64,000 nt of DNA, taken from positions 138,678 to 202,677 of the IMG/VR virus record IMGVR_UViG_3300037067_013225, one strand, 5' to 3'. Both the position numbers and the translations under genes were made by a program. This DNA comes from a virus. Taxonomy: Duplodnaviria > Caudoviricetes. The notes under the pieces are model-generated. The model did not search any database. It was not told the DNA's origin and saw only the letters and a list, made by a program, of their open reading frames with translations. Below, piece after piece: positions 1 to 63,762 of the stretch (the stretch's first letter is position 1; the number at the start of each line of letters is the position of its first letter).

Positions 1-1176
1 CATCTTGTAGTTGCGCTAAACAATCAGATTCAGGAAATTCTTTCGAATCAGGGTAATCGTGTTAGTACGCGGTTCGTAGATAAAATCGCTGATTACTTTT
101 CTAAAGGTCAAGGCTCTACAAAAAATATTAAAACCGAAGTTAATAAAGAAATTATGTTCCAAGCTATGGAGAATCTCGTCCATTCTCCACAAGGCAAACT
201 CCTAGACTATATCAAGGCACCATTTCAATACAATCTAGATACAGATAAATGGGATTTCGAAGATGAAATGCCGGATGATCTAAGAACTGATGAATCGGAT
301 GAAATTACCACATCTGCACCGCCATCAGTTTTGGCATCCACAGCGCCATCTCAGCGTGGGATGTCAGGCAATATTCCGAAACAGGGAAACGATATCGATT
401 TAATTTTAAACGCATTAAATCCGCAAAAATCAGCTTACGGTGATAACACGCAGATTAGTTTAAATCGGCGTGTCATTGCGGGTGATGGTGATTCGGATGT
501 TATGGGGATTCATGGCGGAGACGGATCTAATTTAGCGCAGATTGCGTTAGGATCTGTGGGAAAGTTTGTTGGTGTCCAAAGTCATCCGCAGCATTTTACG
601 CATGTAGAAAATACCAGAAGTCCACATAAGAATGTCGTAGAATCAAGCGATTTCTTCCGCACACGCGCCCATCAGGCTAACGAAATGAATAGTGCGACAG
701 TTCCGGAAGGAATGACAAAATTCCATAGAGATGCAAATCCGTCTGGTCGTAGAAACTACTATCCTACGGAATCTTTGGCTGCTGGCGATGGTCGCAATGA
801 CATTGTTGGTGCTGATGGAAGTTCTCGCGCATCTGGAACCATCAATGGTGACGAAGTTACAAATGGCGTTCTGAAGGCGGTTGAAGGATTTTTGGGCAGA
901 TCTGCCGATTCGACGATGAATCAGATGGAATCAAACATTCCCTCGCCAATACAGTCCGGTGTGCAACAGTTGGCCGGTGCTGCTGATACAGCATCGTTAG
1001 CTTCTCCAATGGGTCGCGCTGGACAAACCATTGGTGCAATGATTCCGCAACCCGCGATAGATGCCGCTACAAAACCACTAGCAGGCATTGCGGATAATTT
1101 GGCATCTCGCGCTCTAAAAACTATAGGTAATTTGGGCGATCAAAGCACAAATTTTATCCAGCCCGGTCTGGAATAG
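1..1176 (+). CDS. C-terminal part of a large low-complexity protein, probably virion-associated (5' end outside window)
   Basis: Frame 1 is open from base 1 through the ATG at 154 to TAG 1174-1176; G/A/S/N-rich composition; no recognised domain. Confidence 0.6.
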   Translation, partial: HLVVALNNQIQEILSNQGNRVSTRFVDKIADYFSKGQGSTKNIKTEVNKEIMFQAMENLVHSPQGKLLDYIKAPFQYNLDTDKWDFEDEMPDDLRTDESDEITTSAPPSVLASTAPSQRGMSGNIPKQGNDIDLILNALNPQKSAYGDNTQISLNRRVIAGDGDSDVMGIHGGDGSNLAQIALGSVGKFVGVQSHPQHFTHVENTRSPHKNVVESSDFFRTRAHQANEMNSATVPEGMTKFHRDANPSGRRNYYPTESLAAGDGRNDIVGADGSSRASGTINGDEVTNGVLKAVEGFLGRSADSTMNQMESNIPSPIQSGVQQLAGAADTASLASPMGRAGQTIGAMIPQPAIDAATKPLAGIADNLASRALKTIGNLGDQSTNFIQPGLE

Positions 1177-2045
1177 CTAACCAGGCTGGGTTTAATAAAG
1201 CAAATATAAAACACCCTCTGGTTGGTGCCGTAACACAGTTTTTATCCGAACATTCCAGTGTCCCGGAAGGACAAAAACGTTTATGGGCGCATTATTTATC
1301 GAATCCACAACATAGGGTGGATTTTAAAACACAACCGCGAGAGATTAATAAAAATGATAAAGCGTTACTAGATTATATTTTATTGGGTGGAAAAGCGGTT
1401 CGAAGCGGAAATTTATCTTATGGGCAGGGTGTCGATCCTCACAAAGTGACATCATCTGCCGTGGGTGAGATATCTGCGGAAGACGTAGGATACGATCCTC
1501 ACACTACGATACAAAAACGTCTAGGCAAAAAGCCGCTTCCAGCATCAGTGAATCCAGTTCTATTGGGTGCGTCTGCCGATACAGTAGCCAATAGAGGCCA
1601 AGGCGACTGGTACAGTGTGGAAGCTAGCCCTGAACGCGCTCATGGCTTTACGTTGGTGGTAGGGCCACAAACAGGTGATGAGCAGACAATGCGGTCTAGG
1701 TTACACTACACACCCACAGCTAGCGGAGAACGCCAGCTAAATTTGGGCCAACCTCCCGTACCGCATAAATGGCTTGAAGATCCCACATTACGATCCATCG
1801 CTGAGAAATTTATCTCTTTGTCTGGTAGTGGTGTCGGTGGAAAAGAATATAAATTATCCGGTACGCATCAAGGTAACGAATTTAAGCTATTCGATCCGCG
1901 TACAGGAATGTCTATCCGATATGATAAACGTACCGGCGGTGTAAATAGTCGATTTAGTGGCGGTATTCCTACAGGTAAGCAAAATCCCCTATATGTGGAT
2001 ATGTCAACTCATGCGATACCAGTTCAGGATTTCATAAATAGCTAA
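1131..2045 (+). CDS. Hypothetical protein; possibly a -1 frameshift extension of the upstream ORF
   Basis: Frame open from 1131 to TAA 2045; first start codon is GTG 1317 with no Shine-Dalgarno; overlaps the end of the upstream ORF at slippery A_AAT_TTT (1149-1155). Confidence 0.55.
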   Translation, partial: FGRSKHKFYPARSGIANQAGFNKANIKHPLVGAVTQFLSEHSSVPEGQKRLWAHYLSNPQHRVDFKTQPREINKNDKALLDYILLGGKAVRSGNLSYGQGVDPHKVTSSAVGEISAEDVGYDPHTTIQKRLGKKPLPASVNPVLLGASADTVANRGQGDWYSVEASPERAHGFTLVVGPQTGDEQTMRSRLHYTPTASGERQLNLGQPPVPHKWLEDPTLRSIAEKFISLSGSGVGGKEYKLSGTHQGNEFKLFDPRTGMSIRYDKRTGGVNSRFSGGIPTGKQNPLYVDMSTHAIPVQDFINS

Positions 2046-2063
2046 TTCCACATCCTCTCTCCG

Positions 2064-2090
2064 ATGGCGGCGAAAGCCGCCATTTTATTT
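2064..2090 (+). terminator. Intrinsic terminator between convergent genes
   Basis: ATGGCGGC-GAAA-GCCGCCAT followed by TTTATTT. Confidence 0.8.
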
Positions 2091-5314: not shown

Positions 5315-5319
5315 TTATT

Positions 5320-6188
5320 TTATCCCTTGTCCGTATTTACACTATACACCGAAATATCTTCCGTGCCATTACGAGCCACAAGTTTATCAACCATATTGGT
5401 GGCGCTTTCCATATCATTAAAAAACAAAGCGCCTTCCATTATATAAGACCACAACCTGCATTTCTTTCCGGTAAAATAATATATACTTCGTCCGGGTGAA
5501 GAAGTTGATGATGGATCGTATATGATGATGTAGTATCGGTCTATCGGTTCTTGGGTAAATGCAGCTACATCCAGTGTTTTCATAACTTTATATTCCATTT
5601 GTTTCTCCTAGTCTACAATACGGAAACTGTTTATGAATTCGGCATTAAAATTTGTTAGAGCCTTGCCTGCGGCATCCGTGACATAATATTTGAAGATGAT
5701 CCCACTTTCGGAATCAATCGGTTTCAAAAAGAAATAATACAGATTATCATCGGGAATGTTGGAAATATTTTTGCCGAATTTAACAAGATTCATATACAAT
5801 GCAGAGAGGCTTTTTAATGCATCACCTGTCATGCAAAACTTATAAGTATCGTAGGTGTCCACACCTGGCTCTACTACTTCATCATTCAAGCAGTGGAAGT
5901 TTAATCCTCTAATATCAGTGACTATCAACGATATCATTTGTTGTTCCCTTCTCCGTAAAATATTTCGGCTTCCTCCGGCATCATATTGCTGAAGGTTAAA
6001 TAACGATGATCTCTTTTGAGAACCAGACCGCTATATTTTTCTCGTACCACAACACGGCAACCATCAATCCAATTGGCTGTGGCAACCGGTTGGATAAGCA
6101 AGATTTCCCATTTTCTCAATCCCCACATCCATGCCCAAAAATATAATAACCATTGCATCATTCGCCACCACGCCCCTTTGTTTTCCAA
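5320..6188 (-). other. Three small hypothetical genes (5320-5598, 5608-5937, 5934-6188)
   Basis: Contiguous ORFs on the arm's coding strand. Confidence 0.55.
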
Positions 6189-6748: not shown

Positions 6749-7302
6749 TTACTCCACCCACAATTAATACAATATTTACAACCAGCCTCATATACTAGGG
6801 ACATTTCTGCACATGTAGGACATTTCTCTATTTTTTTATTCTTAATATAGAGACTTAATCGTTTCGCTATATGATATGTGATGTTAGAAACGTTATGATC
6901 TAGAGAATTTAGCACATCTACCACTCGCTCTACTGGAACTTCGTGCCGCAATAATAATGACACGGCTCTACTAAGTTTACCAGTATTCGGTTCGTTTTTT
7001 CCCTTAATCTTTTGCTCAGTTAAAAAGATATCCTCGATACCGAATAGCTTTCCTAGCTCATTCAATCTGTCTATAGCGTCAGATATATTTGCGGATGAAT
7101 CTCGCGAATTCGTTTTAATGAATACTTCGTAAGGTTTTCCGTTGTGTATATTGATCGTTAAGTACCATTTCTTCCCCTCGGCTCTAATATCGTATGTTTT
7201 ACCATCCAATACCGAGGGTCGTTTTTCAACGACACGTTCCATTTGAGCTAAATCACGGTTCACCTGAGAGATATCTGGATCTTCATTTGTCATTGTGCTC
7301 AA
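6742..7302 (-). CDS. NrdJb-like C-terminal subunit (TSCPD domain plus Zn ribbon) of a split class II ribonucleotide reductase
   Basis: KWYLTIN..KPYEVFI, LSRAVSLLLRHEVP, terminal CPTC..LVYEAGCKYCINCGWSKC. Confidence 0.75.
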   Translation of the reverse strand: MSTMTNEDPDISQVNRDLAQMERVVEKRPSVLDGKTYDIRAEGKKWYLTINIHNGKPYEVFIKTNSRDSSANISDAIDRLNELGKLFGIEDIFLTEQKIKGKNEPNTGKLSRAVSLLLRHEVPVERVVDVLNSLDHNVSNITYHIAKRLSLYIKNKKIEKCPTCAEMSLVYEAGCKYCINCGWSKC

Positions 7303-8739: not shown

Positions 8740-9296
8740 TGTTTTTCCAAAATAGATATCGCGCGATGATATTTCGCTTGCTTCCGCTGATATCGGTTCA
8801 GATCTTCTCCCGATACTGATGTGAACAATTTTTCCACTCGTTCAGAATCGGTATTATGTCTAAGATCGGCCAACTTAACATATCCCGCAATCAGATTTTC
8901 GCTTGCGGCAATATTATCTATATAAGTATCATATTCACAAAAATTATCATGCGTCAAGATATCGATTGTTTCCGCAATCGTGTCTCCAAACAATCCCTTG
9001 ATAATTTTATATGTATTGGGGATTTCTTTACTGCAAGGCTCTACAAATGGGCCATCCTCCCAAGCATCATGCAAATATGCCACTATTGTACAGTCATAAT
9101 ACAATGGATGAATAGTGAATGGCTTTGCGCTTGACTCCAATATATCTGATACGTGATTAACCACAGCATTGATATGATGCATATATGGCTTTCCCACAAG
9201 ATCGTGCTGTCCGTAATGATATAGTTCCGCCATCGACCGAGCCATATCAACCTGGCGTTGTCTGTAACAGTAATCTGTTTCTGAATATTCTGGCAT
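8703..9296 (-). CDS. HD-domain hydrolase, RelA/SpoT/Mesh1-like
   Basis: H.GQ.D..GKPY..H, AYLHDAWED, VKLADLRHN motifs. Confidence 0.8.
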   Translation of the reverse strand: MPEYSETDYCYRQRQVDMARSMAELYHYGQHDLVGKPYMHHINAVVNHVSDILESSAKPFTIHPLYYDCTIVAYLHDAWEDGPFVEPCSKEIPNTYKIIKGLFGDTIAETIDILTHDNFCEYDTYIDNIAASENLIAGYVKLADLRHNTDSERVEKLFTSVSGEDLNRYQRKQAKYHRAISILEKQCHIRREKPWSL

Positions 9297-9735: not shown

Positions 9736-11733
9736 TCATTGTGCATATGGATGTCCGTATTTATTGATATATTCTGCGCTAAAATTATACTGATATTCTG
9801 GATCTAAATCTGTTGGATATTTATCGAACAAAATAATTCCTACACGGCCCTCATTTCGTTGAACATAGATAGAGCAGCCCTTTAAGTTATGTTCATATGC
9901 GGCAATATATATTTTCTCTATTTCTGCCGGTGATGCATTATTCTCGTTAAGATTATATGTTACAGACACAGATGCATCGATCCATTTCTGAATACCTTCC
10001 ATGAGGGATATTTTTTTGCGCCAATTAATTTCATGTGCAACTTTGCATTCTTTTTTTGTGATTGCGGAATCCATTAATGCGATTTTTTCTTGGTCGGTAG
10101 ATAATAGTTCCGGATCTATTCCGGTGCGTTCTAGGACAATTTGCCGTGCCACAGGATGTAAAATCAGTTGCCAGCGCCATTCATAGGGATAATTTTTCGG
10201 CACCACTCTAGTTCTGCGATAGTACCAAGTATCCATGATTGGCTCTACTCCTGATGACGACTTCAATATGATTGATCCCGTACCAACAGGAGGTATTGTC
10301 AAACAACATACATTTCTCATTCCGTATTCGAAATCGCTATATTGGAACGTACCAGAATCGATTAAATGTTTCATAAATCCGGATTTAAATATCGGATGCT
10401 GAGAAATGACGTGCTTGGCTCTATCAACTTTCCACAAACACCACGGTTTTCCATGAGATGATATAGTAGAATCATCCCATGCCGGATATGGTTCACGTTC
10501 TTTAGCCAACTTAATACTCTGTTTATACGCACCGATACACATTGCGCGAGTTAATTGTTCCGCGATATCGCATGCGCGATCTGAATCGTAAGCTATTCCA
10601 CAGCGCAATAGATAGTCGGCTAGCCCGGTATATCCTACGCCAACACGACGCAATGCTTCTAAATCCTTGCGCTGTATAACTGTGGGACAGCGATCATCTC
10701 TAAGCTGGCAGGATACCGTGTTATCTAGGAAATGTAATATTTCTCCCGCACGTGATTCTACCAACACCAAGGCTTTATCAAGATCGATTGGAAGATCGGC
10801 TAGATTAATATTGGATAACACACATGACGATCCATTTGATAGGATTTCCTCCGAGCAGCCATTAACCGATGCTATAGGATATCCTATGGCATCACTGTTG
10901 GACATGCGTTGTGATGTAGACCAATATAATAACCCAGGTTCAGCATGTTCGTATGCATTCTGGGCGATTAGCTTCATTAATTTGCGTGCTTTAATAGTTT
11001 TGTATATTTTGTTGTCGAAGGTTAGATCCCATGTTGCGTTCTTTTTATACGCTTCGAAAAATGCATTGCTTATTTTTATGGAAATGTTAGCGGATTGAAT
11101 TTTAGTATAGTCGCTTTTAACCGTAATAAATTCTTCTATATCGGGATGATTATCGTCAATGCATAATAGAAGCGCGCCGCGCCTATTGTGCGCGGCGATC
11201 AATCCGGTTGTTTGACTAAATAGTTGCATCCATGAAACCGCACCGGTGGAGGTTTTTGCCGCATTGTGTGTGGGTGATCCAGCGGGACGTAGAGCGGTCA
11301 TGTCATAGCCAAGCCCTTCTCCGCGAGAACTGACTTTGGCGGTAATATATGCGGCTTCAAATATCCCTTCTAATGAATCTGCCTCTATGGGATCTCCGTT
11401 TCTATCTACGCCCAATGCGAATCCGGTGCAATTAATTAGAGATGTTTTGTCGGTATTTCCTGCACCATATATGATGCGTCCACCCGGAATAAATTCGCGA
11501 TTGAACATCATTGAAAACCATTTTAGAGCCTTGGCCTGTTGTGAAGCTTTGTCTGGCTCTACTGATGCTATATATGTAGCTATACGCCAAAATACTTCGC
11601 CGGGAGTTTCTTTTGTTCCATCGGGCTTATCTAGGGCATATTTGCGATTAAATACATCTATTGCAAATTGATCGTGATTGAAATATTCTTCCGTTGTGAT
11701 TGCTATTTCTGTCGGTTGCGATTGCTGTGTCAA
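9736..11733 (-). CDS. nrdJ: Class II (adenosylcobalamin-dependent) ribonucleotide reductase, catalytic subunit (NrdJa-like)
   Basis: FIPGGRI..GAG, SLINC, RRGALL, SANISI, EPGLL, NGCSE (NPCGE variant), RRVGVGYTGLAD, TIPPVGTGS, SSGVEP, KGCSIY. Confidence 0.9.
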   Translation of the reverse strand: MTQQSQPTEIAITTEEYFNHDQFAIDVFNRKYALDKPDGTKETPGEVFWRIATYIASVEPDKASQQAKALKWFSMMFNREFIPGGRIIYGAGNTDKTSLINCTGFALGVDRNGDPIEADSLEGIFEAAYITAKVSSRGEGLGYDMTALRPAGSPTHNAAKTSTGAVSWMQLFSQTTGLIAAHNRRGALLLCIDDNHPDIEEFITVKSDYTKIQSANISIKISNAFFEAYKKNATWDLTFDNKIYKTIKARKLMKLIAQNAYEHAEPGLLYWSTSQRMSNSDAIGYPIASVNGCSEEILSNGSSCVLSNINLADLPIDLDKALVLVESRAGEILHFLDNTVSCQLRDDRCPTVIQRKDLEALRRVGVGYTGLADYLLRCGIAYDSDRACDIAEQLTRAMCIGAYKQSIKLAKEREPYPAWDDSTISSHGKPWCLWKVDRAKHVISQHPIFKSGFMKHLIDSGTFQYSDFEYGMRNVCCLTIPPVGTGSIILKSSSGVEPIMDTWYYRRTRVVPKNYPYEWRWQLILHPVARQIVLERTGIDPELLSTDQEKIALMDSAITKKECKVAHEINWRKKISLMEGIQKWIDASVSVTYNLNENNASPAEIEKIYIAAYEHNLKGCSIYVQRNEGRVGIILFDKYPTDLDPEYQYNFSAEYINKYGHPYAQ

Positions 11734-13032: not shown

Positions 13033-13198
13033 TTATCCTTTCCTTGAAAGATCCCTAGATTGTTCTCTTACTTTTGATGCGAAATCCCCACCCAGCGGCT
13101 CTAATAAATCTTCACTTTGCGTTTCATAAATATATAATTCCTCCATACAATTGGGACATATGCCATCATACATACGGCATCCGCAATCTTCGCAATAA

Positions 13199-13936
13199 CT
13201 ATATGTGGACATGTTCTCTCCTTAGAAATAGCTTTTCTGTAGCCTTTTTAGAGGCAATATCTTTCGTTAATGACGAACAAACATTCTGAGACCACAAACA
13301 TACCCAATCTGGCGGTGCGTTATATTCGGAGACAAAAACCGGATTAGTTTGCGATTGGATATTGCACCACTCCCAAAATTCATCATGCGAAAAAGGTATT
13401 TCATACTGTGTGCTATTTTGATATGGCGGATCGCAATACACTAGGGTATTTTTGGGTATGAATAGATCTTTGTAATTCATAGATATAAATTTTACGGTTT
13501 GAATATGTGGTAATTGTTTTAATACGTTATTTTTGCTTTCTAGACAGTGATTTCTTGGATCGCCATTCTTATTCTTACTTCGTGCATATCCACCAAACCA
13601 CTTTCCCGCATAAGAACATCCCACACCGATAAAACCAATATTAGCGGCAATGTCACGTTCTTTGGCGAATGATTCGCGACTTAGCAATCTATAGAAATTG
13701 TAAGTTTTTTCATCCAAGTCATCGGGTGGTATCCATCCGTTTTGTAGAGCCTGGAACATTTTTATTACGTAGATATTGATATCATTGCCGATGCGATTGA
13801 AAGTGGGAGGCACTTTTTCGATTAGATTAGCACCTCCCACGAAGGGTTCTAGCCAATTGGCGCGATTTGGCGCATATTTGAGCATTACCTGGATAAGCTC
13901 AGCCGCATATTTGGATTTCGAACCCATGTACTTCAT
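13199..13936 (-). CDS. DNA adenine methyltransferase (D12/Dam-like class)
   Basis: KYMGSKSK, EPFVGGAN, GNDIN, VYCDPPY, FVSEY. Confidence 0.85.
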   Translation of the reverse strand: MKYMGSKSKYAAELIQVMLKYAPNRANWLEPFVGGANLIEKVPPTFNRIGNDINIYVIKMFQALQNGWIPPDDLDEKTYNFYRLLSRESFAKERDIAANIGFIGVGCSYAGKWFGGYARSKNKNGDPRNHCLESKNNVLKQLPHIQTVKFISMNYKDLFIPKNTLVYCDPPYQNSTQYEIPFSHDEFWEWCNIQSQTNPVFVSEYNAPPDWVCLWSQNVCSSLTKDIASKKATEKLFLRREHVHI

Positions 13937-15082: not shown

Positions 15083-15418
15083 TCACTCCTCTCCGCAATT
15101 TTCACATTTCACCATAGCGGGATTTATTAGCGAGGTTTGTATTGCGTTAATAAATCCGCATTTTCTGCATCTAAAAAATTTCCAATATATCACCGCTGGA
15201 AAGATCGGTATCAGCATCAAGGCTCTACAAAAAGCTACTAAACCAATCACTCCGCCATTATATAGGGCCAAATACCAAAATCCATATCGGCTCAAAACAA
15301 CCATACCCCATCCGTATGCGGTTATGGTTACTACCATTATACCATAAGCTAGTGCAAAAAGCAAGGCTATTTGGAGGCAATATTGTAGAGCGCTGGCTGC
15401 GCCAGATGTAAGTTTCAT
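15083..15418 (-). CDS. Membrane protein with C-terminal Zn ribbon
   Basis: Hydrophobic segments then CRKC...CENC. Confidence 0.6.
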   Translation of the reverse strand: MKLTSGAASALQYCLQIALLFALAYGIMVVTITAYGWGMVVLSRYGFWYLALYNGGVIGLVAFCRALMLIPIFPAVIYWKFFRCRKCGFINAIQTSLINPAMVKCENCGEE

Positions 15419-37636: not shown

Positions 37637-37643
37637 GAGAGAA

Positions 37644-49754: not shown

Positions 49755-49760
49755 AGCCGC

Positions 49761-49791
49761 GCTTGACAAACCGGGATTCCGCTGGTATACT
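49761..49791 (+). promoter_or_regulatory. recA promoter; 29-bp identical direct repeat of 48871-48899
   Basis: GCTTGACAAACCGGGATTCCGCTGGTATA at both positions. Confidence 0.85.
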
Positions 49792-49844: not shown

Positions 49845-50801
49845 TTGGCAAAAAAGAACGAAGAGAAAAGCGATATCACAACACTATTTGATAAAATTAA
49901 TAAACAATATGGTTCCGGCACATTAAAATCGGCGACAGATGCGATTGATGCGGAACGAATATCGACCGGTAGTATCGTATTAGATCAGCTTACAAAGGGT
50001 GGTGTTCCGCGCGGATTTATCACACATATATATGGATCGGAAGGTGCCGGTAAAACAACATTAGCTTTACGAATAGCGAAAGAAGCCCAAAAAATTGGGC
50101 TTGGTGTAATGTATATCGATGTAGAGCAAACAGTTCGCGCTTCATATTTGGATTCGTTAGGTATAAATACAGACATAGATAAGTTTGTTTTATCCAGTGC
50201 TTCATTGGGAGAGGATGTAATTCAGATTGTTAGAGAGGTTTCTGAATCTGGATTGTTCGGATTAATTATTGTGGATTCTGTAGCGGCCATGACATCTAAA
50301 ATGGAGCTTGACGGTTCATTCGGAGATGCTATAATGGGCGTTAAAGCACGTCTTATGTCGCAAATGGCGCGTGTATTGCCTAAGATTATCAACGATAATA
50401 ATGTAGCTTTAATCTTTATTAATCAAATGCGTGATAGTATCGGCCCATATGGAGGGAAACCTATTCCTGGTGGCCGAGGTCTTAAATATTCAAGTGCGTT
50501 GGCATTAGAGTTAATCCGAATTAAAAAAACGCCCGATCATATTGTTGTTAAAACAACCGTAGAAAAAAATAAATTTGGGAAATCGTTTGATAGTGCCGAG
50601 ATACAAGTATTTTTCGGCAGAGGAACGGATATTTATTATGAATTAGTGGAGCTTGGAGAGGAGCATAAACTATGGACAAAAGGTGGCGCATGGTATACAT
50701 ATGGTGAACAAAAATTCCAGGGTGCCGATAAATTGGTAGAATATCTCCGCACCCTGTCAGAAGATGAATTAGATATCCTGATCGACAAATGTAAGCAATA
50801 G
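49845..50801 (+). CDS. recA: RecA recombinase
   Basis: ISTGSIVLD, GGVPRG, YGSEGAGKTTL, IVDSVAA, ARLMSQ, IFINQMR, PGGRGLKY, KNK, GAWY. Confidence 0.95.
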   Translation: MAKKNEEKSDITTLFDKINKQYGSGTLKSATDAIDAERISTGSIVLDQLTKGGVPRGFITHIYGSEGAGKTTLALRIAKEAQKIGLGVMYIDVEQTVRASYLDSLGINTDIDKFVLSSASLGEDVIQIVREVSESGLFGLIIVDSVAAMTSKMELDGSFGDAIMGVKARLMSQMARVLPKIINDNNVALIFINQMRDSIGPYGGKPIPGGRGLKYSSALALELIRIKKTPDHIVVKTTVEKNKFGKSFDSAEIQVFFGRGTDIYYELVELGEEHKLWTKGGAWYTYGEQKFQGADKLVEYLRTLSEDELDILIDKCKQ

Positions 50802-51201: not shown

Positions 51202-51529
51202 CATGGAAGAAATCGTGTATCATTTCTATGCATTAGATAGCGTACATCCCATAGATTTGGGAATATTTTCCAAATTGGGATATGTGCCGGATTCGTGTTT
51301 TATGATAGAGCCATCACAAACATATGACGAATGGATGGTGTATGGATTCGGCCCAAAACGATTACAAGGTTATGCGGGTCGCGGCAATTTGGCACCATGG
51401 TTTTTTAGAACTGCCGATAAGCCAACTTTTAATATTGAAGCGGCAAGTATTGAATCGCTTCTTTTGGCTATAAATGATTATATGATCGGTAGACACCCCA
51501 TAAAAGAGTGGCAGGAGATTGACTTTTGA
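51191..51529 (+). CDS. Hypothetical protein, IDF-tagged (WQEIDF*)
   Basis: ORF track; likely ATG 51203. Confidence 0.75.
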   Translation: MIFSMEEIVYHFYALDSVHPIDLGIFSKLGYVPDSCFMIEPSQTYDEWMVYGFGPKRLQGYAGRGNLAPWFFRTADKPTFNIEAASIESLLLAINDYMIGRHPIKEWQEIDF

Positions 51530-52053: not shown

Positions 52054-52246
52054 CAGGTATGCTTGAGTTGAACGAACTATTCTTGCGTTACCTCGCAATG
52101 GGGTTCGAGCCTGACGACGCAATGTTATGGGCCAAGAACGAATTTGAGGACAAGAATGAGGATTGTTTAGAGGCAGAGGCTCTACAAAAAGATACTTGGG
52201 CAATCACAGATGATAATCTAAATCTAGATGAATTATAGGAGATGAT

Positions 52247-53218
52247 ATGGATCTGCAAGATGTTAAAAATCTCGTTACAGCAACAGCACCACTACATGAT
52301 ATCAAGGTGCAATCCAGCGCAATCTCTGCGCACGTAACACCCCATAAGCGTATTTATATCGTCCAAAAACATGGCGAAAATCGCATGAATCTACATATCG
52401 GGGCGGAACGACAGTTGTATCAGAAGATCGGATATCCGCAATCTGAACGTTTCACGTCAAAAATCGCCTGGGAAACCATGGATCGAATCATTGACGAATT
52501 ATATTCCGCCACATACAAAAACGACAAAGAACTTCTAATTCGTGCGGATAAAGAAAACGATACTGTTGTGGCATTTTTGTCCAATCGTTATAATCCCTAT
52601 GATAATCGGGATTTGTTAACGAATGTGGAAATTGGCCTATGTGATGTGGCATGGAATCAGGAAATTCACGACCCATATGTGAATGATTACAAGTGTTTGT
52701 TTAAGGTTATTTTCCCAGAACATTCCGTTACAGATTCGGAAACCGAATTAAATCTGACACCGGGACTGTTTATCTCAAATGATGAAACGGGAAATGGAGC
52801 GGTGTATTGTAGTCAGGTTATTTCTCTAACATATGGAGAAAAACCCCTATATTTTTCTAACGTCAAACATATCAGCGCACAGCGAACCTGCCATACCAGC
52901 AAATATGTCGATGCCGCCAATGCGGTTGTAAAATCGTGCGAAACGCTCCCCAAATTTGCACGAGAATTTATTGCTACGATTCATGATGCGCAATCTCGCA
53001 AGCTTAATTTTACCGAATTGTCTGAGCTTTATGAATATATCGGTAAGACATTGGTTCGCAAGGATGAGGTTAGAAATATTCTCTCATTGTGGGATAATCA
53101 GAATCGATCATTATGGACATTGGGTTTGGCTATCTCTAGAGCCGCCTATGATTACAATCCGTTACGTCGTGCTGAACTTGAGAAACTTGCAACACAGATT
53201 TTGGTGAGGAAATATTAA
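52247..53218 (+). CDS. DUF932-like phage/plasmid protein
   Basis: VVAFLSNRYNPYDN, GLFISNDETGNGAV, H. Confidence 0.55.
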   Translation: MDLQDVKNLVTATAPLHDIKVQSSAISAHVTPHKRIYIVQKHGENRMNLHIGAERQLYQKIGYPQSERFTSKIAWETMDRIIDELYSATYKNDKELLIRADKENDTVVAFLSNRYNPYDNRDLLTNVEIGLCDVAWNQEIHDPYVNDYKCLFKVIFPEHSVTDSETELNLTPGLFISNDETGNGAVYCSQVISLTYGEKPLYFSNVKHISAQRTCHTSKYVDAANAVVKSCETLPKFAREFIATIHDAQSRKLNFTELSELYEYIGKTLVRKDEVRNILSLWDNQNRSLWTLGLAISRAAYDYNPLRRAELEKLATQILVRKY

Positions 53219-54777
53219 TGTGTAAAGCTCCCATGGAGCCAATGGGTACGAATTGTTACTTTTGCTCATTTTCATCGGAACGGCAACCCAACATTCTTGA
53301 ATGCACCCATCCCGATATTGACTTGCTTGCTGGCGCAGAAGCGGCAATTAAGTGCAATTTACAGGGTATGGAACTGGCAGGCTCTAAGATCGGAATTAAA
53401 ATCGATCCACAAGGGCAGCTACTTGGTCGTGCATTCTGGCCCATTGCATTTGATCCGATTTGGATTGAGTGTTCCGGTTATATGCCGAAATTACCCCAAT
53501 ATCAAGCATCAAACATATCTTGTGGAGAATCTGCATGACAAACGATATCAGAGAATGGGATATTTATAACTTTTGCTATAATAGCGAAACGTTAGATAAA
53601 TACAATAAGGCATATCCTGGTGCCGATACGCATTGCTTTGAGGGAATCCTGATTGCAAGATATCATGGCGATGTGCTGATGTTATTCGATACATATTGGG
53701 AAATCGGCGGAATGACTGGAAAGGTTTTTACTATCGAACAAGCGCATGCTAAGGGTACTTTAGAATATGTGGGCAATTTGCACGAATTGGAGCCTGGATT
53801 TAAAAGTGATTATCGTTATTATAAGAGCGAAGATCTAGTCACCCTGCACACACAGCACGCATGTGTTGAAAGCTGCATCTATCATTATCGCCGTCAAAAT
53901 GCACAACGTGATGCATTCGTTATACTGGACTCTATCGGCAAGGCTCTAGATAATATTGTGCGAAAGCAACAAAGCATGAAATTAGATATCGAGCAATTAT
54001 CTAAACAGATTCAAGAGGTTCAAAACGGTAATCTAGATATCAATATATGGTGTTAGGAGAATCCAATGATTCAGGTACCACAGGGCGTTTATGATGGCAT
54101 TTGTGCCGTTCGTGATTCTGGCGAAACGAATATGTTTTCGTATCAAGATGCGATTGAGATTGCATTGGTTATGGGATATGATGAGGCTGCGGCCTGGATG
54201 GAGGATAATAAAAGCTCTTACGTTAAGGGCATTTTCGAGGGATTTGAGGTGGGAAATGGCTGATCTTGATATTGTGGAAGGTATAAAATGGGAAAGGGAT
54301 GAAATTGTACAAGAACTGAGAGGTTTGCGTGATAAATTCACGCGAATAATTAGGGATTTAAAAGATACTCGCGTTCCGATATCGAACGTCATATTGCATG
54401 ATTATGGCATTCAGATAGGCGGAACAAACACGGGGGTAAGTGATGTGGCGATATTCCGCAACAAAGGTATTTTGGTTGAACTTGATTCGCGCTGGACACC
54501 CGGAAATTCCAATTATATTGGGTGTGCTAGCCCTAATGATACTGGATTTATTATCACGATATTCGATTCTTCCCGCAATGGATATGATCCGATATCTGTA
54601 AAAGATCCTCAAGAACAACTTCCGATTGTTCAAAAAGCGATAACGCTTATGGAATCAAAACTTCACAATATTCGGGTCATGATACAGAAACAAACCAAAA
54701 ATGAGGTTGCTGAACGAGAAGCGAGAAAAACATCGGTAATCAATGCTTTTCTTGACGGGCATTCACCACTAGATTAG
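53218..54777 (+). other. Hypothetical genes (53218-53538, to 54056, 54066-54263 DUF5049-like, to 54777)
   Basis: Contiguous ORFs; AVRDSGETNMF motif in 54066-54263. Confidence 0.55.
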
Positions 54778-54782: not shown

Positions 54783-56207
54783 ATGATGCATATTTTACGT
54801 ATTAGGCATGGATTTGCCACAAATAGTTCCTCCACGCATTCTATCGTGATGATTCGTCCGGGAGAACATATTTACGAGGATATTTGTAATGCACCCCAAT
54901 TCGACTGGGAATGCTTTACATTAACCGAGAAAAATATGAAGTTGCAATATTTGGCGCAACAACTGCGATGCATTGGTGCCTATGATACTGTAGCAAAGAA
55001 ATTCATTCGGAGGCATGATGAGGATTTTTTAGAGCGGTTGCTGGGAATTACTGTAGATGATACGGGGACTATCGATCACCAGAGTGTGTTGTCTTTTCCT
55101 CGGAATTTCGACGATACTATTAATTTCGATTTTATAAAAGATTTTGCCAAATTCCTCTCCAGAGATGATGTGATGATTCTGGGTGGCAATGATAATGGAG
55201 GGGATCATGATCTAGAGCGACCATCTTGGGCATCTAAAGAAAATAACTTTGTTGAATACGAGAATCAACGTCATGACGCATGGTACGACATTCTGGATCA
55301 GCATTTGTATGCGATCAATTATAAGGATTATTGGCTCTTATTCAATCCGAATACCGGTAGTAAATATCGTGTATCGTTTGATCAAATCAAACCAGAAATA
55401 CGTAAAAGTATTGCGCCTGAACTGGTTGATTTAAAAATTACCGATTATTGTGACAGAGGTTGTACATATTGTTATCAGGGATCAACCACATCTGGCAAGC
55501 ACGCATCTTTTACAAATATTAAGAAAATTATCGACCGACTATCCGAATCGCATTGCCTTGAAATAGCTATCGGTGGAGGAGAACCCACATCACATCCGAA
55601 ATTTTTAGATATTTTATCATATGCACAGAAAAAGAATATCTTTCCGTCATTTTCAACGCGAAATTATCAATGGATCAACAACAATGTTCCATCGAGAGAA
55701 ATGTCCGTATATACTTCGGCCATAGGGTATTCAATAGAAAGTATCGCGGATCTAGAAAAGCTCAAAATAGACTCGTATTATCGCAAGAAGATTGTTCCCC
55801 ATATCGTTTTAGGTACGGTGCAGGATTTGGACGGTTTGCTTAGATATTGTGCGCAAAATTCTTATACGCCATTGCTACTTGGATACAAAAATACCGGTAG
55901 AGGCTCTACTCCATCATTTCCATATACCGAAGAAACAGTACATAAAGCTATTGCTTTATCAGGCTTAGAATCCATTGGCTTAGATACATCCGCTGTCAAG
56001 CAAATACATGCAACTCAGTGGAGCGATATAGTAGAGCCTGCCCTGTATATGACAGACGGTGAGGGGGATTTCTCCTGCTATATGGATGCCGTTACCATGA
56101 CGATGGCACGTTCATCTTATTGCGGAGAAAAGGCACCCCTGAGGGATAATTGGTTGCAGGTGTGGGAATCTTACCGATATGATAACTGGCAGGAAATCGA
56201 TTTTTAA
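54783..56207 (+). CDS. Radical SAM enzyme, IDF-tagged (WQEIDF*)
   Basis: N-terminal RHGFATNSSSTHS; CDRGCTYC (CxxxCxxC); IAIGGGEPT.HP. Confidence 0.85.
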   Translation: MMHILRIRHGFATNSSSTHSIVMIRPGEHIYEDICNAPQFDWECFTLTEKNMKLQYLAQQLRCIGAYDTVAKKFIRRHDEDFLERLLGITVDDTGTIDHQSVLSFPRNFDDTINFDFIKDFAKFLSRDDVMILGGNDNGGDHDLERPSWASKENNFVEYENQRHDAWYDILDQHLYAINYKDYWLLFNPNTGSKYRVSFDQIKPEIRKSIAPELVDLKITDYCDRGCTYCYQGSTTSGKHASFTNIKKIIDRLSESHCLEIAIGGGEPTSHPKFLDILSYAQKKNIFPSFSTRNYQWINNNVPSREMSVYTSAIGYSIESIADLEKLKIDSYYRKKIVPHIVLGTVQDLDGLLRYCAQNSYTPLLLGYKNTGRGSTPSFPYTEETVHKAIALSGLESIGLDTSAVKQIHATQWSDIVEPALYMTDGEGDFSCYMDAVTMTMARSSYCGEKAPLRDNWLQVWESYRYDNWQEIDF

Positions 56208-56547: not shown

Positions 56548-57510
56548 ATGAAAAAAGGTCTCGGATTTGATGATATATTGTTGGTGCCGCAATATTCAGA
56601 TGTGGATTCTCGAACGGCACCACTGGTTCATACATTCCTGGGCGATCAAACATACCTGATACCAATTATCCCAGCGAACCTAGACTGTATCGCTACGTTA
56701 GAAATGCGCGACGTGCAAGAAGCGCAAGGTGGATTATTTATACATCATCGTTTTGCGAATCTAAACGATGTCAGACGTGGCGAATACTTTACCGTTGGAA
56801 TGCGTGAGTTTAGAAATCTGGATAAATGGCTGGAACCGATTGTTATTGCGAATGATAAAGGTATAAATATCTGTATCGATATCGCCAATGCACATAATAG
56901 GATGGTTTTGTGTGCGGTGGAAACGATTAAGAAAAAATTCCCGCACACAAAAGTTATGGTGGGAAATATTGCCACATCTGCTGCCGCAAGGGATTTCTGC
57001 ATGCTGGGTGTGGATTGTTTGAAAATTTCAATTGGTTCAGGAGTGATCTGTAGTACAAGATTTGCTTGCGGTGTGGGAGTGCCAGCCGTAACGTGTATTA
57101 AGGATTGTGTAAAAGTTTGTAGAGCCTTCAAGGTGGCAACAATCTATGATGGCGGTATTGATCGTTACGACAAGGCATGCAAAGCTTTGGCGTTGGGTTG
57201 CGATTTTATCATGATGGGCGGTGCGTTTGCAAAATGTAAGGAAGTGTCATTACCGGAAATCGATGGCAAGTCATATTATTGGGGACAATCATCCATTGAA
57301 TGCCGGGAGAAATGGTATAACAATAACGCCAAACTAATACCTGAAGGAATTAAAATCGAAATCAACAATCCATATAGTGAAAACGCCACCGATATCATTG
57401 ACGCATATATTGCGGCTATCAAATCGTCCATGACATATTTGGGAGCAAAAAATATAGAAGAATATCATAAGAAATGCCGGATTATCAAAACGAACAAATT
57501 AAAAGAATAA
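56548..57510 (+). CDS. IMP dehydrogenase / GMP reductase family protein (no CBS domains)
   Basis: GFDDILLVP, IDIANAH, VGNIAT, KISIGSGVICSTR..GVG.P, DGGI, KALALG..FIMMG, PEG, SSMTYLGA. Confidence 0.9.
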   Translation: MKKGLGFDDILLVPQYSDVDSRTAPLVHTFLGDQTYLIPIIPANLDCIATLEMRDVQEAQGGLFIHHRFANLNDVRRGEYFTVGMREFRNLDKWLEPIVIANDKGINICIDIANAHNRMVLCAVETIKKKFPHTKVMVGNIATSAAARDFCMLGVDCLKISIGSGVICSTRFACGVGVPAVTCIKDCVKVCRAFKVATIYDGGIDRYDKACKALALGCDFIMMGGAFAKCKEVSLPEIDGKSYYWGQSSIECREKWYNNNAKLIPEGIKIEINNPYSENATDIIDAYIAAIKSSMTYLGAKNIEEYHKKCRIIKTNKLKE

Positions 57511-57529
57511 CCAGATTTGTAGAGCGGGC

Positions 57530-57558
57530 TTGACATTCGCGCCTGTCCGTGTTATAAT
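57530..57558 (+). promoter_or_regulatory. Perfect-consensus sigma70 promoter with structured leader
   Basis: TTGACA-17-TATAAT; leader contains a pseudoknot-like element at 57601-57628. Confidence 0.85.
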
Positions 57559-57638
57559 AACGATACTTGAGGTGCAGTTCAGCTTCGAGATATGGGCTAC
57601 TGTCTTGAGCATGACGTTAAACTGCCCAGAGGTATTAT

Positions 57639-59056
57639 ATGAAACGTTATGTAATCGAATTTTGGGATTCTAATGCGTGGAATATTATGAGCGACAGCAA
57701 AAATCCCCATGGATGGGAATACAAGACTCAGGCTCTACAACGATGCGCGGAACTTAATCGCGAAACAGATCACAATACCCGTCAGGGAGCATTTAATGGA
57801 CATCGATATCGTGTACGTAAACGCGAAATATAAGGAGATGAAATGATTAGTGAAATCGCTAAAACAGTTGGAGAAACTATTCAAGTGAGCAGCATGGAGG
57901 TATCAAAGCTCTTAGAGCAGGTGGCTTCGGCTCTAAAGATTCCTGTAGAGTTCGTGTGGGAGCAGGTATTAAGACAAAACTATTATTACGCCACCGCAGA
58001 TTTGGTTTTTGCGGGAATTTTTCTCGTGATATTTCTTATATCGTTACCATTCTATATTAGAATGTTTTCTGCAAAATACGGTGGTTATACTTGGGAGGAT
58101 TTGGCTATATTGGTGCCGATTTTTCATGCGATATTTTCCGTAATGTTTATTTCGGTTCTTGTGCCTTGCGGCATTCGTAGACTTGTTGTACCGGCGCTTT
58201 GCGCAATGCAGGATTTGATAAATATTGTAAGCGATCTTAAGGGGTGATATTTTGATGAAAGAGAATATCCATAATATTCACTTATGGTATGACGATAACA
58301 ATGTCTGTTGGTTTGCTTGCGCATCTTATATCAATACCGAGCGCATGAGCGTGGGAATTACTCGTGATGGGCAAAGTCCCGCAGAAGCATTAATGATGTT
58401 GTTGGATGCGGCTGAAATATCCGGATATCTTCCCGCGAATGACAGTAATGTAACCAGACGTTATGAAATAAGGATTAAAGATGAAGTTTGACATCTTCAT
58501 AAGCATTAAAACACAAACAGATGGCAGTGAGAAACAGGCTAAGGCTCTAGAGAATTATTTACTTGCGGCCATCAACCTTACAGTAGAACCTACAGATCAA
58601 GATACAATATCAAGCAAAATTCTTCAACGCACATGCGAATGCGGTGGCGAAATAAAATATCAAGCCACTGACGCAGGTGGATGTACATGTTATGAGGCAT
58701 ATTGTCTAAAATGTGGGCATGTATATAAAGAAGATATCGTGAGCGATTAAATTATGTTAGATTTAGATAAACTGGAGAAATATCCCGATATATATGCGGA
58801 ATTGCTATCATATCGCGGCAAAGACTATTCGTGGACGATCCTCAATATATTGGATATCAGGAGGCGTCGCAAAGCGTGCCAGCAATGGCACGACGAAACA
58901 AAACAAACGTTGAAAAAGATGAGCGGCAAGAATTGCGATAAAATTAGGGCAAAAGTTATATCAGAACGATGCAAACGTCTAGATGTGATGTTGTCACTTT
59001 TAGCCAAACTAGAATACGATCTTGCATTAGAATTACCGAATCTTCCATACGTGTAA
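57639..59056 (+). other. Five small hypothetical genes (57639-57833, 57843-58247, 58252-58491, 58481-58750, 58754-59056)
   Basis: Contiguous ORFs, several with SD sequences. Confidence 0.6.
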
Positions 59057-60532: not shown

Positions 60533-60912
60533 TGTTTAAACATATATTAGAGTTAGCATTGGCGTTAGCCTCTACAAAAGCGGTAGATGATGGTAATTGC
60601 CGTCATGCATGTGTCATTTTCGATAAAAAGGGGAATGTTATTTCTACCGGCTGGAATCTTAGCAAATACGAGAATAATAATGCGGGTCGATATCATGAGT
60701 ATGCGCATTGGCATGCGGAAACTCTCGCGATATACCGCTTACCCAAAACAACCAAATCGCTATATTTGTTGTCGATACGCATAAATAAGCGTGGCGAATT
60801 GCGACAGGCTAAACCGTGTCCAGAATGCGCGGCTCTAATAATGAAACAAAATATCCTCGATATATATTATAGTGATTGTTTAGGACAGATTATCAAGCAG
60901 GTGATAAAATGA
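60532..60912 (+). CDS. Zn-dependent cytidine/dCMP deaminase-like protein
   Basis: HACVI..GWN, HAETLAI, KPCPEC. Confidence 0.8.
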   Translation: MFKHILELALALASTKAVDDGNCRHACVIFDKKGNVISTGWNLSKYENNNAGRYHEYAHWHAETLAIYRLPKTTKSLYLLSIRINKRGELRQAKPCPECAALIMKQNILDIYYSDCLGQIIKQVIK

Positions 60913-61487
60913 ATTGGGATGGAACATGGATGCGTAAATGGACGCAGGAGTGGGAAGCGGGATGGGGTGCTTCGAATATAATTTTCTTTTTTGGACTATT
61001 CGGGTGGTTTTTCCTTGGGAATATGCTTAGTCAGAGATCTATGGTATCAATCTTATTGCATGGAGGAACAATCATGGAATATATTACAGTATTGGGTTGG
61101 GGAGCATATTTGTGCGTGGGAATATTTTTGCAAGGATATGTGCGCAAATTCATCAACAATGCCAGCTTTTTCGTAGTGTTGACATGGCCCATTATTATGA
61201 TTTGTATATGTGCTAACTTATCTGGGATGTTGATCGAATCTATAAAACATAGTAGAGCCAAGCTCTCAGGGTACGAGAAACAGTTACTAGACAAGCAGGC
61301 GGAACTATCCGAGTGGAAACAGCAACTAGAATATATTAAAAACACAGAAGCTACCGTTAGACAGATCAGTGAAACGCAAACGCAATGCGCACTAATACAG
61401 GAGAAGATTGATGAAGCATTGAATTTGAGATCTTCAGAACATGCCGAAGCCCAACCTCATAAGCAAGGCTCTCTAGAAAGAGCTTGA
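60909..61487 (+). CDS. Membrane protein with C-terminal coiled coil
   Basis: Three hydrophobic segments followed by heptads. Confidence 0.55.
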   Translation: MNWDGTWMRKWTQEWEAGWGASNIIFFFGLFGWFFLGNMLSQRSMVSILLHGGTIMEYITVLGWGAYLCVGIFLQGYVRKFINNASFFVVLTWPIIMICICANLSGMLIESIKHSRAKLSGYEKQLLDKQAELSEWKQQLEYIKNTEATVRQISETQTQCALIQEKIDEALNLRSSEHAEAQPHKQGSLERA

Positions 61488-61880: not shown

Positions 61881-61911
61881 AATATATTTATCATGGGCAT
61901 GATAACAGGTT

Positions 61912-62517
61912 ATGAAAAATAATATGGAGAACGTAATGAAATATTTGATTATTATTTTAGCGTTATTTGTATATGGTTGTGGTGCCGCAAACGATATCGT
62001 TCGCGCGGATAAGGGATTTCCTGCGCCATCTAAGTTGCAGTCTGAGATCGGAGACGAATTTAAGCCATATCAGACTGGTGGAGAATATGTGCGAAATGCT
62101 GATAAATATGGTCGCTTCTTCTACAACAACCTGGGTGAAACGAATGCTTTGCAGCAGAAATTTTCTCCGCTACCTGTACCAGATCCCTTGCCGGAAGGGA
62201 AATCCGCGATAGATTACTACGCTTACTGTGTGTATCGTTTATCAAACGAACCAAAAGATGGTGAACGTTTCATTATTCGGTGGTATAAGGGAGAGGGATT
62301 GGGATATTGGGTGGGTTTATCCAATTGTGCGAAAGATACTTGGGTCTGGACATACATCGACAGGCGCGGGAGCGATAGATATCTAGACATACTAGAGATT
62401 CCTCCCGAATACGTAGATGAGAACAATCATTTCTATATAGCATTGATGATCGTAGAGCCGCCGGTAGAGGGATTGATTTATGTGGGATTCACACCGGAGA
62501 AACAAGATGGAACTTAA
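61912..62517 (+). CDS. Putative lipoprotein
   Basis: MKYLIIILALFVYG-C lipobox-like signal. Confidence 0.6.
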   Translation: MKNNMENVMKYLIIILALFVYGCGAANDIVRADKGFPAPSKLQSEIGDEFKPYQTGGEYVRNADKYGRFFYNNLGETNALQQKFSPLPVPDPLPEGKSAIDYYAYCVYRLSNEPKDGERFIIRWYKGEGLGYWVGLSNCAKDTWVWTYIDRRGSDRYLDILEIPPEYVDENNHFYIALMIVEPPVEGLIYVGFTPEKQDGT

Positions 62518-62598
62518 TTGTGAAGAGTTGGTCGATCTCGGTTCGAGATCGATTGTGGAAGCCGCCATTGATACTGCTAAAGATGACAAGCTAATTCA

Positions 62599-63762
62599 TT
62601 GGGCGGAATATGGGCGGCAATTCAGTTCAGAATCAAGATGGAGCACAAAATGAAATGTCGTAAATGTGATGGACGCGGTTACTACTATAAAGAGGGAAGC
62701 ATTCCCGAATGGGGACGCGGATTGATAACCCTATTTACATGCGGAACCGCATATTTCGGCGATGACAAAATCGCCTGCGATGAATGTACGGGTAGTGGTC
62801 AAGTGGAACAAACAACAGAATCCAATCCTTGGCTCTATGTCAGTATCGGATTAAATATCTTCTTTGTATCAGCGTTAATCATATTGCTAATATGGGTGTG
62901 TGTGAGATGAGTGGTCTATTTTTAACTGTAGCATATGGGGTCGTACCCGTTCCACCCTCACCCGAACCATATCAACCGCAAGCTATTCCTAATCCGTGGT
63001 TCGATAACTCGGATGCCGTTCGTGATGAACGTCGCCGAATTATATCGATTATAGAAAAATATATCAACGATCCAGATATATTGGCACAAATATTTAAGGA
63101 TATCGCGAATGAGTAAAACTTCCAAACAGATCGGATTTACCACAGTCAAGACGATTCTTCACACATATGATAATGGTGTGCAGATTGTGGAAACACGCAC
63201 CTCGAATGAAGATGAACAAACATCCACATATTTTGTGACGGACGGCAAAGAATACCTGGATCGCCAAAATCGATATCTTTTTATACCGCCACCCAACCAA
63301 TTCTTGTTAGAAAAGGCGAAAAAGGGCAATCTGGATGATATTCGCACATTGGAGGCAGTTTCGGTACTGGCGTGCGAATTAATTAAACGCGATATCATAG
63401 ACAGAAAATGCCTCTTCGATATACAGACGTTTAATGATGGATTTATTTATCCATGGGCATCCGAAATGCCCCTAAACACGCCTTTACATCTCTTGACAGC
63501 ATCTCAACAATATCGGCGCAAAAGCTTGTTGAAATATTGGGCTGATATGCCCCAAAACGGTGTTATATCGGTAAATATCGTTGAGGAAATTACCCAATCG
63601 GATGATTACAGGGATACTATCTGGAATTTAGAGGTTTGTCTATCTGATGAGCTATTCGAGCAATTATTCAATGAAGTTGGCAGAGATATCGAGCAGCGAC
63701 TCCGATATGATAAACGGGATTTTTTGGGATTGTTACAATGCGCAAAGGATGAGGATGATTAA
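62599..63762 (+). other. Hypothetical genes (Zn-finger membrane protein to 62910, to 63116, 63109-63762)
   Basis: Contiguous ORFs; CxxCxGxG repeats in the first. Confidence 0.55.

Follow-up and report, generated by a model that had tools for sequence, protein, structure and literature searches.

GGCTCTA, a strict heptamer covering each strand of a large tailed phage genome at even spacing: a possible Chi-like control site

Introduction

The closest described counterparts of the element treated here, the non-palindromic heptamer GGCTCTA (TAGAGCC on the opposite strand), are found in the Chi-rich phages P1, LLS and MD8 (Zheng et al. 2025, PMC12315714). P1 carries 50 true Chi sites (31 in plus and 19 in minus orientation), which amounts to one per 1.9 kb, LLS carries one per 1.86 kb, and in both phages Chi is the commonest octamer, above the expectation from codon usage (PMC12315714). 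At the level of the flanks, E. coli Chi shows a preference for A or G at 4-7 bases on its 3' side (PMC5041463). GGCTCTA was noticed in a stretch of 64,000 nucleotides (hereafter, the window) of a tailed phage of the Caudoviricetes (Duplodnaviria), which corresponds to bases 138678-202677, that is, the last 64 kb, of one 202,677-bp contig with 39.9% GC (IMG/VR record IMGVR_UViG_3300037067_013225). Neither GGCTCTA nor TAGAGCC was found described as a motif in the literature searched. The analysis of its abundance and spacing establishes a strongly selected signal at the DNA level and points to a word that is read directionally, for which a Chi-like role is tentatively put forward.

Abundance of GGCTCTA and selection at the DNA level

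An earlier note, made from the letters of the window, had counted 62 copies of the heptamer, 36 as GGCTCTA and 26 as TAGAGCC, and an exact pattern search recovers the same copies at the same positions. The over-representation claimed in that note also stands, although its size, given as about 10-fold, was underestimated: dinucleotide shuffles of the window contain 3.23 copies (standard deviation, sd, 1.7; maximum 8), so that the excess is about 19-fold. Over the whole 202,677-bp genome there are 186 copies (109 plus, 77 minus), or one per 1.09 kb (0.92 per kb), and each full 10-kb bin contains 5-13 of them.

Permutation of synonymous codons yields only 44.3 copies (sd 4.6) within genes and 39.4 genome-wide, against the 186 observed, and permutation of codon order yields 33.8. 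When all 7-mers are compared with synonymous shuffles, GGCTCTA is the most over-represented of the genome (z 21.5) and the words ranked next to it all overlap it. The enrichment therefore persists when the amino-acid sequence is preserved (186 versus 39-44), and since synonymous shuffles give so few copies the signal must reside in the DNA. In agreement with this, the copies use all four stop-free frames (G-S-x, x-A-L, x-E-P and x-R-A), as the occurrence of copies in different gene frames had already suggested, and of the 717 coding positions able to hold the word by synonymous choice 167 are filled (23%). In the antisense x-E-P frame, 37 of 60 codable positions carry the word (62%), from which it follows that the protein sequence of the phage has probably been bent to accommodate it. 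The three types of shuffle, together with the frame usage, rule out a codon or amino-acid artefact. A transcription signal is likewise ruled out, as 90 copies lie in sense and 77 in antisense orientation relative to the gene, only 19 are intergenic, and the copies favour neither gene strand nor any part of the genes. The excess of GGCTCTA is therefore a strongly selected DNA-level signal, and the idea of a genome-wide mark acting on DNA, advanced from the window, holds for the entire genome.

Spacing and orientation

The gaps between neighbouring copies of the same orientation are more even than random along the whole genome. For plus copies the coefficient of variation (CV) of the gaps is 0.644, a value as low as which was obtained in none of 3000 random sets, and for minus copies it is 0.727 (p 3e-4), at mean spacings of 1.8 kb and 2.6 kb, respectively. 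Same-orientation gaps shorter than 250 bp are depleted (3 versus 13.8 expected for plus copies, 0 versus 6.9 for minus copies), and so are those longer than 4 kb. The result is the same when the null is limited to codable positions (CV 0.71 versus 1.00, and 0.79 versus 1.07). Evenness is not a general property of frequent words, given that the CV is 0.9-1.24 for twelve other 7-mers that occur about as often and that GATATC, in spite of being enriched as well, is not evenly spaced either (CV 1.08).

The decisive observation concerns orientation. Pooling both orientations raises the CV to 0.80, and shuffling the orientation labels over fixed positions raises it to 0.85 (plus) and 0.88 (minus), which the observed values undercut with p < 2e-4 and p 0.03, respectively. 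Were evenness a property of the pooled copies, dividing them by orientation would bring each subset closer to randomness. Evenness is thus stronger within each orientation than in the pooled set (0.64 and 0.73 versus 0.80) and is abolished by label shuffling, which points to each orientation being a separate set selected for coverage of its strand and to a word that is read on one strand and in one direction. Such evenness within each orientation cannot result from a drive by mutation or gene conversion. The two orientations are interleaved along the genome and alternate above chance (runs test z +2.8). The absence of obvious strand polarity, as perceived in the window, is nearly right: the split is 59:41, with a weak excess of plus copies at about 45-155 kb of the genome and no switch of strand at an origin.

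Core and flanks of the motif

Like Chi-type words, which have 5-8 nt, GGCTCTA is short, non-palindromic and sharply defined. The 7-base core is strict, with any single-base variant reaching only 5-51 copies genome-wide against 186. Upstream of it, position -3 is C in 99 of 186 copies, C is also preferred at -4, and positions -2 and -1 are mainly AA or TT; the CAAGGCTCTA form, with the prefix CAA, accounts for 47 of the 186 copies, about 230 per Mb. Downstream, A is favoured at +3 to +5 past the core. The A/T runs that had been seen beside many copies are therefore real but more specific than described, with A at +3 in 137 of 186 copies. Altogether the conserved positions span a footprint of about 15 bp. 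The core is never preceded by G (0 of 186), because GGGCTC is one of the many restriction-type words that this genome avoids (GGGCTC/GAGCCC, 0 in the whole genome versus 29 expected). A by-product of restriction-site avoidance was considered as the origin of the motif and discarded, as it accounts only for the missing G at -1 and not for the enrichment.

Copies within the window

In plus orientation, exact pattern search for GGCTCTA and TAGAGCC locates copies at window positions 112-118 (in the CAAGGCTCTACAAAA form), 2382-2388, 5867-5873, 6964-6970, 7180-7186, 9037-9043, 10241-10247, 10417-10423, 11555-11561, 13097-13103, 15221-15227, 16453-16459, 19170-19176, 25271-25277, 27625-27631, 29819-29825, 34009-34015, 34853-34859, 36737-36743, 37495-37501, 38246-38252, 39958-39964, 42191-42197, 44452-44458, 45120-45126, 47057-47063, 48472-48478, 52178-52184, 53380-53386, 53942-53948, 55902-55908, 57731-57737, 57929-57935, 58543-58549, 60831-60837 and 62831-62837. 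Those in minus orientation lie at 2211-2217, 5656-5662, 11524-11530, 13745-13751, 17100-17106, 18699-18705, 20921-20927, 24459-24465, 25703-25709, 27526-27532, 29972-29978, 33577-33583, 37999-38005, 39036-39042, 41016-41022, 43657-43663, 44284-44290, 46438-46444, 47171-47177, 49752-49758, 51306-51312, 53137-53143, 56032-56038, 57120-57126, 61253-61259 and 62453-62459. The copies at 11524 and 11555 form a pair 31 bp apart in the order TAGAGCC...GGCTCTA. Over the genome, close pairs in this order number 18, against 6 in the reverse order, a difference (p about 0.02) too weak to build on.

Gene content of the phage

The gene set is that of a large tailed phage, with terminase, portal, capsid, baseplate, ligase, ribonucleotide reductase and ThyX, several sigma-like factors, and replication and repair genes for a DnaE-type polymerase, DnaB, an archaeo-eukaryotic primase (AEP) of the PrimPol type, SbcCD and RecA. 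No terminal repeats are present on the contig. A match at L119:12675-13439 (+) to the Kyanoviridae Gp96 family is weak (E 2.4e-6) and the sole cyanophage-leaning family match.

Replication and recombination genes are densely packed in a module at 24743-50801 of the window. Its first part encodes the AEP/PrimPol-type primase (24743-25660, +), a sigma-like factor, a Rad52-like strand-annealing protein (28239-29057, +), the DnaB-like replicative helicase (31730-32947, +) and a DnaC-like loader. It continues with an end-processing group (34436-38516, +) formed by SbcD, SbcC, a phosphatase-like protein and a Cas4-like PD-(D/E)XK nuclease, and then with an HNH protein, a RuvB-like ATPase and a RecA of bacterial type (49845-50801, +). 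Of 20 small proteins encoded nearby, the majority match nothing and none was recognised as a known RecBCD inhibitor.

Two sigma-70-type promoters, one preceding recA (49749-49790) and the other following a gene for a guanosine monophosphate reductase-like protein (57516-57560), have in common the upstream element TTTGTAGAGC-N4-CTTGACA, which may be the site of a common regulator or the result of a duplicated promoter. The motif had been placed upstream of both -35 boxes. This is correct for the recA promoter, where, within 49749-49775, the minus copy at 49752-49758 lies just 5' of the TTGACA box, whereas the promoter at 57516 carries TAGAGCG, one mismatch away from TAGAGCC.

Relatives of the phage

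A blastn search against 50,697 phage records gave no match to this genome, and no close relative was found among cultured phages or in IMG/VR. Scans with DnaE of IMG/VR and JGI returned only proteins of 24-35% identity, and the loci that encode them show no excess of GGCTCTA. One relative at 81% identity is represented by a 17.8-kb JGI contig, which encodes P0002. Searching IMG/VR with the 16-base form of the motif produced single chance matches, and the mildly enriched loci were all unrelated to this phage.

The nearest relative retrieved is the 68.9-kb contig logan:SRR30862820_2798, with a DnaE 44% identical and a GC content of 34%, of which 52 kb were joined (bases 2546-54691; L363, L036, L361 and L365). 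It maintains the same gene order in the replication and recombination module, primase and DnaB genes included. GGCTCTA itself occurs there 12 times versus 3.2-5.3 expected, none preceded by G, and the top DNA-level 7-mer is CTCTAAA (53 versus 17.9 in synonymous shuffles, z 8.3). Like GGCTCTA, this word is present in both orientations (25 plus, 28 minus) at about one per kb; its 5' side is C/G-rich, the form CGCCTCTA occurring 10 times versus 1.8, and its pooled spacing has a CV of 0.76 (p 0.012). As judged from the two sequences, both phages have in common the core CTCTA, A-rich on its 3' flank, and diverge 5' of it. The set of palindromes avoided by the relative differs as well (AGATCT 0 observed of 21 expected, ATCGAT 1 of 15, AGTACT 0 of 11 and TGATCA 0 of 10). 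No comparable excess was seen in an 11-kb relative with a DnaE 48% identical or in 35 loci at about 30%.

A proposed Chi-like control site

The reading preferred here, which we hold tentatively and at less than an even chance, is that GGCTCTA works as a Chi-like control site for an end-processing helicase-nuclease. According to this proposal the word would be a cis-acting signal, read on one strand and in one direction by an enzyme travelling along the DNA, and selection would have spaced copies in the proper orientation 1-4 kb apart on each strand. The likeliest reader would be an end-processing helicase-nuclease of the RecBCD/AddAB type, either the host's or possibly the phage's. Such an enzyme would enter at a genome end or at a break produced by restriction or CRISPR, degrade the DNA until the next properly oriented GGCTCTA and there switch from degradation to the production of a recombinogenic 3' end. 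This end could then be used by the RecA, Rad52-like, SbcCD and RuvB-like machinery of the phage for repair and recombination-dependent replication. In E. coli, acquisition of CRISPR spacers and Argonaute guides stops at Chi, and for this reason the benefit to the phage might include that fewer spacers or guides are taken from it. What we infer in this proposal is which enzyme reads the word, that a nuclease switch takes place and what the phage gains from it. As to the functions suggested for the mark when it was first noticed, the orientation-specific even spacing favours a directionally read signal, which could serve recombination or end processing or else replication priming, over a plain organising or packaging site, for which orientation should be indifferent.

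Several points weigh against a Chi-like site. Chi in P1 is clustered, with CV values of 1.24-1.50, whereas GGCTCTA is even (0.64 and 0.73, against 1.24 and 1.45 for P1 Chi), and the known Chi words are G-rich, which GGCTCTA is not. Chi-rich lambdoid phages have no recombination genes of their own (PMC12315714), while this phage encodes RecA, a Rad52-like protein, SbcCD, a Cas4-like PD-(D/E)XK nuclease and a RuvB-like protein, so that it departs from the Chi-rich P1/LLS class in possessing its own recombination module. Among the bacterial genomes sampled, none carries GGCTCTA at Chi-like density. Finally, a reader encoded by the phage would explain the partial sharing of the word by a relative of different GC content no less well than one belonging to the host. 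Should the word nevertheless be a Chi analogue, it would give the Chi word of the phage's host, it would reveal a large phage that possesses its own recombination system and is still tuned to a host nuclease, and it would constitute a coverage pattern absent from P1 and LLS.

A possible phage-owned code and possible replication priming

Another possibility, which we consider doubtful, is that the word was not taken from the host and is part of a self code owned by the phage. One of its enzymes would then act on DNA, or spare it, solely where GGCTCTA recurs in the correct orientation at intervals of a few kb along each strand. Candidates for this role are the pair of PrimPol-type primase and helicase and an end-processing nuclease of the phage. 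Such a code appears to drift with its reader, given that the distant relative has the looser CTCTAAA. If true, the phage would replicate or protect its own genome while ignoring or destroying host DNA.

The main rival to the Chi-like site, unlikely as it stands, is that the copies are fixed lagging-strand priming sites for the AEP/PrimPol-type primase of the phage and its DnaB-like helicase. The primase would, for example, read the template 3'-ATCTCGG-5' and make pppAGAGCC, and, a 7-base site being too rare by chance, such sites would have accumulated on each strand at intervals of 2-3 kb, which is roughly Okazaki-fragment length, with the side effect that efficient replication is limited to the phage's own DNA. 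The per-strand evenness, with its depletion of very short and very long gaps, is what a need for evenly sized Okazaki fragments would produce, and the mean spacings of 1.8 kb and 2.6 kb are compatible with it. Both a PrimPol-type AEP primase and DnaB are encoded by the phage; the relative logan:SRR30862820_2798 has the two genes in the same order, and its iterated word keeps the CTCTA + A part, which would correspond to the start of the primer plus the 3' flank of the template. Sequence-specific priming is, moreover, established for the pentamers of T7 gp4 and for plasmid AEP primases. What makes this explanation difficult is the specificity required, which would be unprecedented for a primase: known primase sites specify 3-5 bases (GTC-based pentamers for T7 gp4, GTT/GCT for T4 and GTG for pRN1), and we know of no genome-wide enrichment of a 7-base primase site. 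Besides, as there is no strand switch at an origin, both strands would have to be lagging-strand templates everywhere. A phage-owned priming or self-recognition code, if true, would be a novel means by which a virus distinguishes its own DNA from that of its host.

Restriction-site avoidance and DNA modification

At least 17 palindromic hexamers have no copy in the genome, each against 5-37 expected from synonymous shuffles, namely AGGCCT, AGTACT, CAGCTG, CCCGGG, CCGCGG, CGATCG, CGGCCG, CGTACG, CTCGAG, CTGCAG, GAGCTC, GCCGGC, GGCGCC, GGGCCC, GTCGAC, GTGCAC and TGGCCA. Other words are avoided to a similar extent (observed/expected: GGATCC 1/38, CYCGRG 1/64, GRGCYC 0/51, GGGCAC 0/28, CCTNAGG 1/15). 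The GC-rich palindromes TGCGCA, GCTAGC, GCGCGC and TCGCGA are at or above expectation, which makes the avoidance specific to particular sites. Such extreme avoidance indicates that the phage is clearly exposed to DNA-cutting defences and faces a real danger from double-strand breaks, which speaks for a Chi-like role of GGCTCTA.

This background bears on a further explanation, improbable in our view, according to which a strand-specific enzyme of the phage modifies or nicks the DNA at GGCTCTA. A Dam-family methyltransferase, a Mom-like protein, or an HNH or other nickase would place regular marks or nicks on each strand that serve as a self label or in repair, replication or packaging. The phage does carry a predicted methyltransferase of the Dam family, a Mom-family protein and several HNH genes, the strand-specific spacing fits a requirement of each strand for its own marks, and methyltransferases of Type IIS, Type III and the BREX (bacteriophage exclusion) type, like phage nickases, typically target asymmetric words of 5-7 bases. 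On the lower strand, TAGAGCC includes GAGCC and so fits S-A-S-N-Y, the site of Mu Mom, a loose site that is frequent by chance. However, modification targets, methylation sites included, are normally neither over-represented nor evenly distributed, and a genome that shuns restriction sites so strongly must be left unprotected by modification over most of its length. Known phage nick systems, such as that of T5, mark one strand only.

The individual enzymes do not strengthen the case. The adenine methyltransferase that had been linked to the motif in the earlier note (13199-13936, -) is the sole methyltransferase recognised, a divergent Dam-family (D12) protein that scores 50 bits, below the family cut-off of 114.85, and has no solved-structure match; nothing ties it to GGCTCTA, and that link does not hold. 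A word that would fit a Dam/EcoRV-type enzyme is GATATC, which is over-represented (319 copies, where synonymous shuffles give 175 and base composition about 66) and often appears as CGATATC, although an EcoRV-type specificity for this methyltransferase is a guess. The Mom-family match is a 283-aa protein (PF25680, E 4e-13) at L122:4322-5173 (+), that is, genome 64322-65173. The Mom family comprises the adenine-modifying enzymes of phage Mu, and this protein would be, from its sequence, a second predicted DNA-modification function in spite of the restriction-site avoidance.

DNA organisation

A still poorer account of the data is that the copies are orientation-blind binding sites of a protein that organises, condenses or packages the DNA, the idea put first in the earlier note. 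It would explain the even genome-wide coverage, with 5-13 copies in each full 10-kb bin, and the footprint of about 15 bp, with C at -3 and -4 and a run of A after the core able to bend DNA. Nevertheless, a pooled CV of 0.80 against 0.64 and 0.73 per orientation is the opposite of what an orientation-blind site should display, and a signal that guides a packaging motor should occur in a single orientation. We regard this explanation as very improbable.

Host searches

In a library of genomes from 185,579 species, the 16-base motif gave at least 120 single, scattered matches, with no dominant clade among the matches listed. Thirteen genomes reached from the listed matches contain 1-16 copies of CAAGGCTCTA each, a few per Mb versus about 230 in the phage. 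Three of the 16-mer matches, in Bdellovibrionales, were dismissed as chance, since the 10-mer is not enriched in those genomes. A cyanobacterial host, guessed from the avoided restriction sites, was also left unsupported: in a survey of 301 genomes sampled evenly across the phylum, GGCTCTA reaches at most about 0.15 copies per kb versus 0.92 in the phage. A bacterial excess was seen in an uncultured gammaproteobacterial metagenome-assembled genome (MAG; G006, contig CAZASO010000033.1, L357) with 491 GGCTCTA in 1.5 Mb versus 119 copies of the reversed control word. Its copies carry the CAA prefix in only 16 of 491 cases (47 of 186 in the phage), and codon or dipeptide usage, as opposed to the phage signal, probably accounts for the excess. 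An equal enrichment in bacteria, which would have made of GGCTCTA a host motif, was thus found at phage density in none of the genomes sampled. These negatives extend to the genomes just named and are compatible with a host-encoded reader.

The uptake signal sequences (USS) of Haemophilus and the DNA uptake sequences (DUS) of Neisseria occur about once per kb, in both orientations and in several frames, with a strict core, AT-rich flanks and a spacing more even than random. Passive acquisition of GGCTCTA from the host, be it as an uptake sequence, a repeat or a codon habit, is nonetheless the least credible explanation, because, for all its resemblance to such sequences in density, orientations, core and flanks and the four-fold excess over the control word in the gammaproteobacterial MAG, that MAG is without the flank signature, no sampled genome comes near one copy per kb, drift or recombination drive would be unable to give orientation-specific spacing or 62% occupancy of a frame, and an uptake signal is of no obvious use to a jumbo phage of the lytic type.

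Comparison with known systems

Chi, uptake sequences and KOPS (FtsK orienting polar sequences) are among the few cases in which the genome-wide statistic of a word led directly to a molecular machine, and the statistic is unusually clean here, with a strict heptamer that fills a quarter of its codable positions and is even on each strand, in a lineage without a cultured relative.

HIP1 (GCGATCGC), the highly iterated palindrome of cyanobacteria and their phages, is also a short word repeated about once per kb across gene boundaries, but it is palindromic and a feature of the host, and this phage has no CGATCG. With KOPS, the SpoIIIE recognition sequences (SRS) and the nick sites of the T5 type GGCTCTA would share directional reading by a translocase or the marking of one strand; those signals, however, either switch at the origin or dif or are confined to one strand, whereas the two orientations of GGCTCTA are interleaved genome-wide. 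The polar arrangement of KOPS and of AIMS (architecture imparting sequences), with one orientation per replichore and a switch at origin or terminus, is accordingly not the one observed (runs test z +2.8). Unlike USS and DUS, which reside on the chromosomes of competent bacteria and are driven by uptake bias, GGCTCTA is found on a phage and its evenness belongs to each orientation. Primase sites resemble it as strand-specific template words that set the starts of lagging-strand fragments, in a phage that has primase and helicase, yet the known ones comprise 3-5 bases and need no enrichment, so that a strict and enriched 7-base site would be new.

The closest likeness is to the Chi sites of P1 and LLS, which GGCTCTA recalls as a short, strict and non-palindromic word that tops its class, recurs about every 1-2 kb and exceeds what codon usage can explain. 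Its presence in both orientations (109:77) matches that of Chi in the headful phage P1 (31:19) and differs from that in cos phages such as LLS, where nearly all Chi sites have one orientation. As in E. coli Chi (GCTGGTGG), purines are preferred a few bases 3' of the word, here as A at +3 to +5.

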